DNA of 34,123 bases from Escherichia coli. GTDB taxonomy: Bacteria; Pseudomonadota; Gammaproteobacteria; Enterobacterales; Enterobacteriaceae. The position numbers were made by a program, and so were the translations under genes. Below are positions 11,847-13,349 of the stretch, in pieces; position 1 is the first letter of the stretch; each line of letters starts with the position of its first letter. The DNA lies in NCBI RefSeq assembly GCF_003334385.1, contig NZ_QOWN01000047.1; one strand, 5' to 3'. Below the pieces are notes generated by a model. It worked only from the letters and a program-made list of their open reading frames with translations, had not been told where the DNA came from and searched no databases.

Positions 11847-12518
11847 TTTGCGCACTCCTGACGTTTAGCAACATATGCGGCTTGCCCTGAACACCGGGCA
11901 CCACTGTATTGATGCTCATTTTCCATAGCCATTCCCTTTTGTTCATTACATCCATGTCAGTCTGAGACAGGCCTGAATCCTGTCAGCAAAGTATAAAACC
12001 TTACTTGCCTATGAATATCTACTGACTTTTCAGGAAAAAAGTCATGATTTGATAAAAATCATCAAACTCAAAAAAAAACCGCTAGTATATTCTGAATATT
12101 CCGAATAGTTACGTAGATGAAAATACTTGTCACCACCGCTACTTAATTCCGGTGTGAAATTATTTATTTCCGCATAATCAGCCATGTATTATTTGAAACA
12201 ATTAGTTTGTAAATAATATAAATTGATAACATATCAAATACATCAAAAATACCATTCACAGGCATTATTAATATAGACATCAATATAGCAACATCAAATT
12301 CCAATTAGTAATAAGATATGTTTTTAAATTGCATGAAAATAATTTCAAATGAGCGTTTTTTGATACTTTAGAGTGTTTCCTACCCTTTAATATCACCGTG
12401 TAGAGTTGATATCACTACAACAGAAACATGCATGTCATTTGTTTACTTCTCATTTTACTACAGAAAAATTTATCTATTTTTCTAAACATCAGTGAAATAC
12501 TCATAAAAGGTAACTATT

Positions 12519-13349
12519 ATGTCTATGCCATTAAGCAATACCCTTCAGAGCCAAATTATTACAGATAATCACTTCCTTCATCATCCAAAAGTCGACAGTG
12601 AGTTAACACGTAAATATGAACGTGCACGCCTGGATACGGAAAATATCTATCTTCTGCCTCTTGCTCGTGGCAATAACCATAATTACGATGGAAAAAGCGT
12701 TGTCGAAATTAGAAAACTTGATATTAGTAAAGAGTCCTGGCCATTTAATTATGTGACAGAAGCATGCAGAGAATCCGATGGTATTACAACAACAGGACGT
12801 ATGCTCTATCGAAACTTGAAAATCACCTCAGCTTTAGACGAAATATATGGTGGCATATGTAAAAAGGCGCATGCTGCTACAGAATTAGCAGAAGGTTTAC
12901 GGCTAAATTTATTTATGAAGAGCCCTTTCGATTCTGTTGAGGACTATACAGTTCATGAAATAACATTAGGCCCTGGTTGCAATGTTCCAGGTTACGCCGG
13001 AACCACGATAGGATATATTTCAACCCTTCCAGTTTCTCAGGCAAAAAGATGGACCAATGAGCAGCCAAGAATTGATATCTATATTGATCAGATAATAACT
13101 GTCTCAGGGGTAGCAAATTCTTCCGGATTCGCCCTTGCCGCATTACTTAATGCTAATATTGAGATGGGAAATGACCCAATCATTGGTATAGAAGCCTATC
13201 CTGGTACCGCGGAGATCCATGCAAAAATGGGATATAAAGTTATCCCCGGTGATGAAGATGCGCCACTCAAACGCATGACTCTGCAACCGTCATCTCTTCC
13301 AGAACTGTTTGAATTAAAAAATGGTGAATGGAATTATATTGGTAAATAG
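12519..13349 (+). CDS. yjiC: Uncharacterised protein YjiC
   Basis: 276-aa ORF in a markedly AT-rich segment, preceded by about 660 bp of AT-rich non-coding DNA. Confidence 0.7.
   Translation: MSMPLSNTLQSQIITDNHFLHHPKVDSELTRKYERARLDTENIYLLPLARGNNHNYDGKSVVEIRKLDISKESWPFNYVTEACRESDGITTTGRMLYRNLKITSALDEIYGGICKKAHAATELAEGLRLNLFMKSPFDSVEDYTVHEITLGPGCNVPGYAGTTIGYISTLPVSQAKRWTNEQPRIDIYIDQIITVSGVANSSGFALAALLNANIEMGNDPIIGIEAYPGTAEIHAKMGYKVIPGDEDAPLKRMTLQPSSLPELFELKNGEWNYIGK

Follow-up and report, generated by a model that had tools for sequence, protein, structure and literature searches.

In the 34,123-nucleotide stretch of Escherichia coli DNA analysed here (contig NZ_QOWN01000047.1 of assembly GCF_003334385.1, the whole of which is called the window below), the genes iraD and yjiC lie between hypT and uxuR and are transcribed divergently from a strongly AT-rich spacer. 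This AT-rich trough very probably represents the H-NS-bound control region of iraD together with the fast-evolving divergent gene yjiC, and a near-palindrome found in it a 9-bp duplication within the translated small open reading frame (ORF) ytiD. The composition, anatomy, distribution, haplotypes and selection statistics were computed here, and the promoters, the translation of the small ORFs, the action of CsrA, DnaA and SspA, H-NS binding and the induction by azidothymidine (AZT) are taken from published papers.

In the mechanism that we propose, promoter P1 on the minus strand would drive a structured leader RNA carrying ytiC and ytiD, and promoter P2 a shorter leader with idlP, through which CsrA would control the translation of iraD; DnaA-ATP, SspA with guanosine tetraphosphate (ppGpp), and H-NS would act on this same control region. 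On the plus strand yjiC encodes a DUF2686 protein, and replication stress induces it together with iraD. The foreign-like AT composition appears to be old, being common to the Escherichia albertii orthologue, to the paralogue yjfZ and to every Escherichia version of the spacer, and it most likely persists because the region is a binding platform for H-NS and RNA polymerase and yjiC is weakly constrained. The near-palindrome may have arisen by slipped-strand duplication of the 9-bp unit ATTCNGAAT, itself a small palindrome; it marks the distal edge of a conserved block upstream of P2 and is coding, as part of ytiD, in most E. coli, and nothing demonstrates a dedicated operator.

An AT-rich, H-NS-bound and foreign-looking spacer is ordinary and already published, and the new detail added here is modest. 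It concerns how old yjiC is and how it is selected, the loss of yjiC and P1 in linkage with the GimA haplotype and the trans-species character of that haplotype, a possible GNAT fold of the DUF2686 family, and the finding that the palindrome is a repeat lying in coding sequence.

Base composition and H-NS binding

The elements of the trough are the following:
11454-11846, minus strand, iraD, anti-adapter protein, GPW/gp25-TssE-like (RefSeq annotation; NCBIfam NF010726, 298 bits)
11847-12518, iraD-yjiC spacer, 672 bp
12519-13349, plus strand, yjiC, DUF2686 protein of 276 amino acids (annotation; Pfam PF10887, E=6e-152)

A preliminary description made from the sequence had named these genes and their coordinates correctly, giving the spacer as about 660 bp, and had considered spacer and yjiC to be AT-rich relative to their neighbours, which is borne out by windowed GC content and by GC content at third codon positions (GC3). 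The span 11847-13349 has a GC content of 0.363, with about 0.315 in the spacer and 0.400 in the yjiC coding sequence, against 0.483 for the whole window. The lowest value in 500 bp (0.276) is found at 12001-12500, and both sides rise to 0.51-0.58. Among windows of equal length only 2% are as AT-rich as the whole span and 1% as AT-rich as the spacer, and elsewhere in the window only the fimA/fimE/fimB/nanC spacers reach a comparable depth. The AT content is thus far above the neighbourhood average, as in H-NS-silenced xenogeneic DNA.

The GC3 of yjiC (0.304) is the lowest among all 29 genes of the window with at least 100 codons and lies 8.8 standard deviations below the 13 core neighbours (mean 0.610, standard deviation 0.035; z = -8.8). 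The rare codons ATA, AGA, AGG and CTA make up 4.3% of yjiC and 0-1.2% of its neighbours. By GC3 and rare codons yjiC is therefore outside the range of the neighbouring genes, as had been proposed; by codon adaptation index, a secondary index here, it is low (0.21) but does not stand apart from other genes of weak expression (z = -1.3).

The suggestion that the region is linked to H-NS finds support in the literature, where it had already been published, since the yjiC/iraD spacer is an entry, 'yjiC(-)/iraD(+) 4554354_526', in the list of promoter islands of Panyukov & Ozoline 2013 (PMC3661553). That island is H-NS-bound in the chromatin immunoprecipitation (ChIP) data sets of Kahramanoglou and of Oshima, and it overlaps DNA predicted as foreign by the GIST, Nakamura and Lawrence methods (PMC3661553). 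It shares with the other islands of the list, among them the fimB/fimE/fimA and nanC troughs of the window, the AT-richness, the dense promoter-like signals, the H-NS binding and the foreign prediction. Most promoter islands are transcriptionally silent, whereas in this one two productive promoters have been mapped and three small ORFs are translated. In the window the island extends from the yjiC ATG to the transcription start site of P2, the U00096.2 coordinates having been converted with an approximate offset. Regulation of iraD by H-NS is reportedly described in Battesti 2012. In Shigella, yjiC was co-induced with virulence-plasmid genes and with fimB/fimE.

Age and identity of yjiC

The distribution of yjiC is patchy. 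The gene is present in E. albertii and in the E. coli genomes with the same interval as the window (called A-type here, 4,882 of 5,426 complete genomes); it is absent from the 512 E. coli genomes with a second type of interval (B-type) and also from four other lineages, namely Escherichia whittamii, E69, SCPM-O-B-8794 and E1V33. E. albertii has the same order uxuR-DUF2686-iraD-iadA, with a spacer of 654 bp and a GC content of 0.31, and in all Escherichia versions, with or without yjiC, the GC content of the spacer is 0.31-0.37. Between E. coli and E. albertii the synonymous divergence (dS) is 0.80-0.87 for yjiC, 0.76-0.89 for uxuR and 0.67 for iadA. The divergence of yjiC thus fits vertical descent, its dS being near that of its neighbours, and is not of the incompatible kind expected of an island. 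Its ratio of nonsynonymous to synonymous divergence (dN/dS) is 0.31, against 0.02-0.05 in the neighbours. As for signatures of mobility, there is no tRNA gene in the window, no mobility gene from hypT to uxuR, and no repeats bracket 12111-13489.

We conclude that yjiC is an old resident which evolves fast under weak purifying selection and is not a recent import. Since the gene is syntenic in E. albertii with a neighbour-like dS, any acquisition predates the split of E. coli and E. albertii, and if yjiC was imported there has been no amelioration since then. Of the horizontal origin that had been put forward, what stands is the foreign-like composition and the restriction of this orphan family to Escherichia; recent import is contradicted by the E. 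albertii synteny, the dS and the lack of mobility signatures.

For the YjiC protein Pfam gives only DUF2686, and NCBIfam gives no match. A search of 1.84e9 representative proteins gave 37 matches, nearly all of them YjiC-type or YjfZ-type fragments, and the named homologues come from E. coli, Shigella and E. albertii only, so DUF2686 is an orphan family restricted to Escherichia. Two distant phmmer matches (P0142 and P0146) are repeat proteins and were rejected as spurious. The K-12 paralogue YjfZ is 40% identical to YjiC, and its gene, at an unrelated locus, is AT-rich too (GC3 0.37). Readings of YjiC, YjfZ or YtiD as defence-system or phage proteins were also discarded, with no significant match in NCBIfam, PADLOC, PHROGs or the PDB profile search.

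It is possible to ask whether AT-richness says anything about origin. The spacer could have been selected for binding of H-NS and RNA polymerase and for melting, as a 'promoter island' stress switch, and yjiC could be a native, fast-evolving gene drifting towards AT. Every Escherichia spacer is AT-rich (GC content 0.31-0.37) regardless of yjiC, no amelioration is seen across the E. coli/E. albertii divergence, and the P1 leader RNA described below is more structured than its shuffles (z = -4.1), all of which agree with this explanation. The equal AT-richness of yjfZ at an unrelated locus points instead to a trait of the family or of its origin and not to locus-specific regulation, and a coding GC3 of 0.30 is hard to ascribe to promoter function. 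We regard this explanation as a possibility, but a rather unlikely one.

Fold searches with models of YjiC matched only GNAT folds (two models, two programs). On these models the C-terminal approximately 180 residues probably adopt a very divergent GNAT-like fold. A candidate for motif A, N-S-S-G-F-A at residues 200-205, can be compared with the GNAT motif Q/R-x-x-G-x-G/A that binds the pyrophosphate of coenzyme A (CoA); its N and G are invariant in YjiC and YjfZ, and the last residue is A in five of six sequences and V in the E. albertii protein. YjiC differs from the members of the GNAT superfamily (AtaT/TacT toxins, AAC(6'), SpeG), with which it has no sequence or profile similarity, by an extra N-terminal region of about 95 residues and by an Asn in place of the usual Gln/Arg of motif A, and the models are of low confidence. 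An orphan family would nevertheless gain in this way a testable fold and a biochemical hypothesis.

In addition, we observed that a published E. coli-specific quantitative PCR (qPCR) marker named 'YjfZ' (PMC11057252) actually targets yjiC, at 12790-12903. The forward primer is exactly 12790-12811 and the reverse primer is 12882-12903 with one mismatch, and neither matches the K-12 yjfZ locus. Since 512 of the 5,426 complete genomes have no yjiC, this assay should miss the yjiC-minus strains, about 9% of the total. One strain in the table of that paper gave 1.5 log copies against about 4.5 (PMC11057252).

The iraD control region and its near-palindrome

The spacer is among the best-mapped regulatory regions of E. 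coli and is already well studied. The features described in K-12 (Merrikh 2009; Park 2017; Sass 2022), namely P1, P2, ORF23, ORF47 and ORF27, the CsrA sites and the DnaA box, are all in the window too, where the identity with K-12 is 100% in the P2 leader segment and 97.7% in iraD with idlP. The features are:
12263-12297, minus strand, iraD promoter P1, TTGATG-16-TATATT, with its start site at -417 (about 12263); found by promoter scan, the motif ending at 12270 and coinciding with the published K-12 start site
11983-11995, minus strand, iraD promoter P2, -10 element TATACT (11995-11990), with its start site at -137 (about 11983); published K-12 start site placed on the sequence
12164-12232, minus strand, ytiC (ORF23), MLSIYIIYKLIVSNNTWLIMRK (translation; PMC5574718)
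12042-12185, minus strand, ytiD (ORF47), small ORF of 47 amino acids in the P1 leader (annotation; ORF47-lacZ fusion)
11843-11926, minus strand, idlP (ORF27), leader peptide (annotation; PMC5574718, PMC7652899)
11920-11928, plus strand, DnaA box '-81', TTTTCCATA (sequence reading; bioRxiv 10.1101/2021.05.20.444958)
12013-12032, minus strand, most conserved block upstream of P2, AAAAGTCAGTRGATATTC, at -30 to -49 from P2 and thus around its -35, with 9 of 11 columns invariant in four independent Escherichia lineages
12088-12107, near-palindrome, two tandem 9-bp copies, TATTCTGAA and TATTCCGAA, followed by TA
12079-12094, plus strand, HusR (YnfL) box predicted by MEME, CCGCTAGTATATTCTG (PMC12844172, Table 1)

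The start sites of P1 and P2 and the DnaA box -81 were reported in bioRxiv 10.1101/2021.05.20.444958, and DnaA-ATP and SspA/ppGpp have been found in published work to act on this control region. The idlP gene overlaps the start codon of iraD, and CsrA represses iraD through idlP-iraD translational coupling (PMC5574718, PMC7652899). Both ORF23 (ytiC) and ORF47 (ytiD) are translated, in the 280-nucleotide stretch between the P1 and P2 start sites, the evidence for ytiD being an expressed ORF47-lacZ fusion (PMC5574718). Under AZT, ytiC is the most strongly induced gene of K-12 (260-fold), with 33-fold induction for ytiD, 18-fold for idlP, 14-fold for iraD and 11-fold for yjiC, all of them LexA-independent (PMC11228462). 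A LexA (SOS) box was rejected also because the sequence does not fit CTGT-N8-ACAG.

The RNA specific to the P1 leader (281 nucleotides, 11983-12263, minus strand) has a minimum free energy of -69.3 kcal/mol (z = -4.1 against dinucleotide shuffles), and none of 200 shuffles folds as well. With a permissive threshold, an Rfam search of 11400-13600 gave only two eukaryotic small nucleolar RNA models, far under their gathering scores, and thus no known RNA family. We also noticed that the RefSeq protein WP_001427063.1 (38 amino acids, SCU-104; 12164-12280) begins ahead of the position where P1 transcription has been mapped to start (about 12263); this entry is probably ytiC/ORF23, whose ATG is at 12232, annotated too long.

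The near-palindrome TATTCTGAATATTCCGAATA was flagged in the preliminary description as a possible regulator site for iraD or yjiC. The element exists and is self-complementary at 18 of 20 positions. It is the sole 20-mer of this kind in the spacer, and about 6% of spacers simulated with a first-order Markov model contain one, so that the symmetry taken alone barely exceeds what chance would give. Read on the minus strand as TAT TCG GAA TAT TCA GAA TA(T), it is the in-frame YSEYSEY of YtiD, with the two mismatches of the palindrome at the third positions of the two Ser codons. The intact ytiD ORF is found in the window and in K-12, and only in the majority haplotype of E. coli; the frame is broken in the B-type haplotype, and E. 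albertii has no intact ytiD ORF. E. albertii has one 9-bp unit, and every other lineage carries both (TATTCGGAATAWTCARAATAT when read in the direction of iraD). The 11-bp TATTCCGAATA (12097-12107) is identical in four sequences of one alignment. Nevertheless, across four independent lineages the invariant fraction is 50% in the near-palindrome and 50-52% in the other DNA upstream of P2, falling to 35% and then to 23% more distally, and the element is conserved no better than its local background. The IraD-like loci of Citrobacter and Enterobacter were left out of this footprinting because they are not syntenic.

The alternative is a true dyad operator, bound by HusR/YnfL or by another factor, that controls iraD P2 or acts as a roadblock to P1 transcripts, or both. 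Its 18/20 symmetry is unique in the spacer, four of the five Escherichia lineages have kept the two-unit form, also where it does not code for protein, and its position is exactly at the end of the homology between haplotypes. Moreover, a genomic SELEX (gSELEX) peak of HusR falls in the spacer (PMC12844172), and the predicted HusR box overlaps the left arm, sharing 7 of the 20 bases. However, only the A-type haplotype has kept this box, and the genes that changed in the husR mutant do not include iraD (PMC12844172). It is uncertain to which coordinate system the peak position (4,554,598) belongs; in U00096.2 coordinates its centre would fall near P1 and not on the palindrome, and only the box sequence was mapped here. 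Together with the lack of a whole unit in E. albertii, the ordinary invariant fraction (0.50 against 0.50-0.52), the chance frequency of such 20-mers and the distance of -105 to -124 from the P2 start site, which is far for a simple activator or repressor, these observations make a dedicated operator unlikely. The regulator site is accordingly retained only as a predicted HusR box that overlaps an in-frame repeat of ytiD. By informal comparison with consensus sequences, none of ArgR, MetR, Fur, Lrp, IHF, CRP, UxuR and OxyR fits the near-palindrome or the nearby dyads.

Other symmetrical sequences were seen in the window. A perfect 8-bp inverted repeat, TGACTTTT-N6-AAAAGTCA (12023-12044, P2 -40 to -61), overlaps the ytiD stop codon; by eye, the arm TGACTTTT and the adjoining block to 12013 are highly conserved across lineages and the arm AAAAGTCA is not. 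A small dyad at 12050-12061 (P2 -67 to -78) reads TGAT-TTTT-ATCA in the window type and TGAC-TTTT-GTCA in the B-type, so both arms have changed and the symmetry was kept, and E69 and E. albertii have the mixed form TGAC...ATCA. The dyad may be an operator or an RNA hairpin, as a candidate at least equal to the near-palindrome. Two further 20-mers of the window are self-complementary at 18 of 20 positions, TTGCCTGAAATTTCAGGTAA (11800-11819), inside the 5' end of the iraD coding sequence and partly conserved across Escherichia, and TATTCTTAACGTTATGAATA (1580-1599), between mdtM and yjiN.

Our explanation, a 9-bp duplication in ytiD within an H-NS-bound control region next to a fast-evolving yjiC, has several points that weigh against it. 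A scan with the H-NS high-affinity consensus (TCGATAAATT-like) is uninformative, with 51 matches in the window for 43.8 expected (a site with one mismatch is in the spacer at 12467-12476), and H-NS occupancy at this place is taken from published data, with silencing putative. The two-unit element is kept in lineages that have a stop in the ytiD frame and no P1, and because two units are kept where ytiD is non-coding, coding constraint alone does not explain the repeat, which may have a role at the level of the DNA. As to YjiC, model confidence is low, with a predicted local distance difference test score (pLDDT) of 39 for the full-length AlphaFold2 (AF2) model, which served as a hint only, and of 58 for the other, and no sequence-profile link between DUF2686 and GNAT families was obtained with Pfam, NCBIfam or the PDB profile search.

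Haplotypes of the hypT-uxuR interval and neighbouring features

The B-type interval is 95-96% identical to the window in hypT and uxuR and only about 78% identical in iraD and its leader. Homology between the A and B types ends at about 12110-12116, just beyond the near-palindrome, and from there a segment, which four other Escherichia lineages lack as well, is replaced in the B-type by 150 bp of unrelated DNA:
12111-13489, P1, ytiC, the 5' part of ytiD, yjiC and the yjiC-uxuR spacer

Between hypT and iraD the yjiC-minus haplotype carries a 425-bp fragment of a 'PEP-binding protein' gene (6063-6487 of the yjiC-minus locus examined), which represents a GimA (ptnI/pptE) remnant or else the terminal part of a complete GimA island and is found in 512 genomes. 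Since both counts are 512, the linkage of yjiC absence and GimA appears complete, as judged by counts and not genome by genome. The fragment corresponds to the pptE/ptnI remnant in the GimA polymorphism of Homeier 2010 (PMC2878320), where GimA or its remnant between yjiD (iraD) and yjiE (hypT) was almost exclusive to phylogroup B2 and sequence type 117 (ST117). That study covered only the hypT side and makes no mention of yjiC, whereas the 512 genomes counted here also lack P1, ytiC and yjiC. Neither the 9-bp repeat nor the P1-less haplotype is mentioned in Park 2017, the Sass preprint or the 2024 AZT RNA-sequencing paper.

The iraD gene and spacer of the B-type are 95-98% identical to those of E. 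whittamii and Escherichia sp. E1V33, with flanking genes at 89-91%. Within E. coli the A and B alleles of iraD have a dS of 0.71-0.78 and the flanks 0.09-0.23, which is an excess for iraD. The iraD-yjiC polymorphism is thus deep, trans-species or introgressed, and is not a simple recent insertion or deletion. A recent horizontal acquisition of yjiC and its spacer as an islet, with the yjiC-minus genomes as the ancestral empty site, would agree with the foreign-like GC3, with the three published prediction methods (PMC3661553), with the absence of yjiC from E. whittamii, E69, SCPM, E1V33 and 512 E. coli genomes and with the lack of homologues beyond Escherichia, but it is very improbable, as E. 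albertii has yjiC in the same place and orientation, the dS of yjiC equals that of its neighbours, there is no tRNA, integrase or flanking direct repeat, the yjiC-minus haplotype is a divergent block (95-98% to cryptic clades, flanks 89-91%) and no simple empty site, the adjacent iraD is equally divergent (dS 0.7-0.8), and the deep reciprocal monophyly that is seen refutes it.

We would tentatively suggest that the DNA from hypT to uxuR forms a block with two haplotype states of ancient origin, which may be introgressed or balanced; we consider this somewhat less probable than not. State A (about 90%) would have iraD-A, P1 (stationary-phase, damage-inducible), ytiC, ytiD and a GNAT-like YjiC; state B, in strains with GimA or its remnant, would have iraD-B, P2 only and no yjiC, and would be common to cryptic clades. 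If this is true, a major lineage of extraintestinal pathogenic E. coli (ExPEC) would differ from K-12 in how IraD-mediated stabilisation of RpoS is controlled, and YjiC would act as an acyltransferase in the LexA-independent response to replication stress. All knowledge of iraD regulation comes from K-12, whereas in about 9% of sequenced E. coli, GimA-type ExPEC included, P1, ytiC, the 5' part of ytiD and yjiC are missing and the iraD allele is a very different one.

Some further observations concern the same interval. Between the A and B types, dS in uxuR (0.22-0.23) is roughly double the value in iadA and uxuB (0.09-0.14), and uxuR may be reached by the divergent block or by its hitch-hiking effect. 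The same GimA remnant is present in Escherichia sp. E1V33 (96% identity). E. albertii NBRC 107761 contains a sequence that matches this remnant at 87% and lacks iadA within 3 kb, as if a GimA-like insert were present in this strain as well. No hypT lies between iraD and iadA in E. albertii and E69, and in SCPM-O-B-8794 the gene is degraded, so that this gene for a hypochlorite regulator is also variable at the hotspot.

As for the neighbourhood, the 2.1 kb of the window that were queried are 100% identical to the chromosome of E. coli SCU-104, and the window is in reverse orientation to the K-12 map. The local order is iadA (plus), hypT (plus), iraD (minus), idlP (minus), ytiD (minus), ytiC (minus), yjiC (plus), uxuR (minus), uxuB, uxuA and gntP, followed by fim and nanC. 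The 3' ends of hypT and iraD overlap by 8 bp (11454-11461). A 17-nucleotide direct repeat, TTAAGCAATACCCTTCA and TTAAACAATACCCTGCA (88% identity; 12531-12547 and 13393-13409), flanks the yjiC coding sequence almost exactly, with one copy in codons 5-10 and the other 44 nucleotides past the stop codon, and may be due to chance. The remaining features are:
13490-14263, uxuR
13450-13478, GC-rich, terminator-like putative hairpin AAGCGCAAGG-N9-CCTTGCGCTT between the convergent yjiC and uxuR, as read from the sequence

In the yjiC-minus haplotype a different hairpin occupies the position of this last one.

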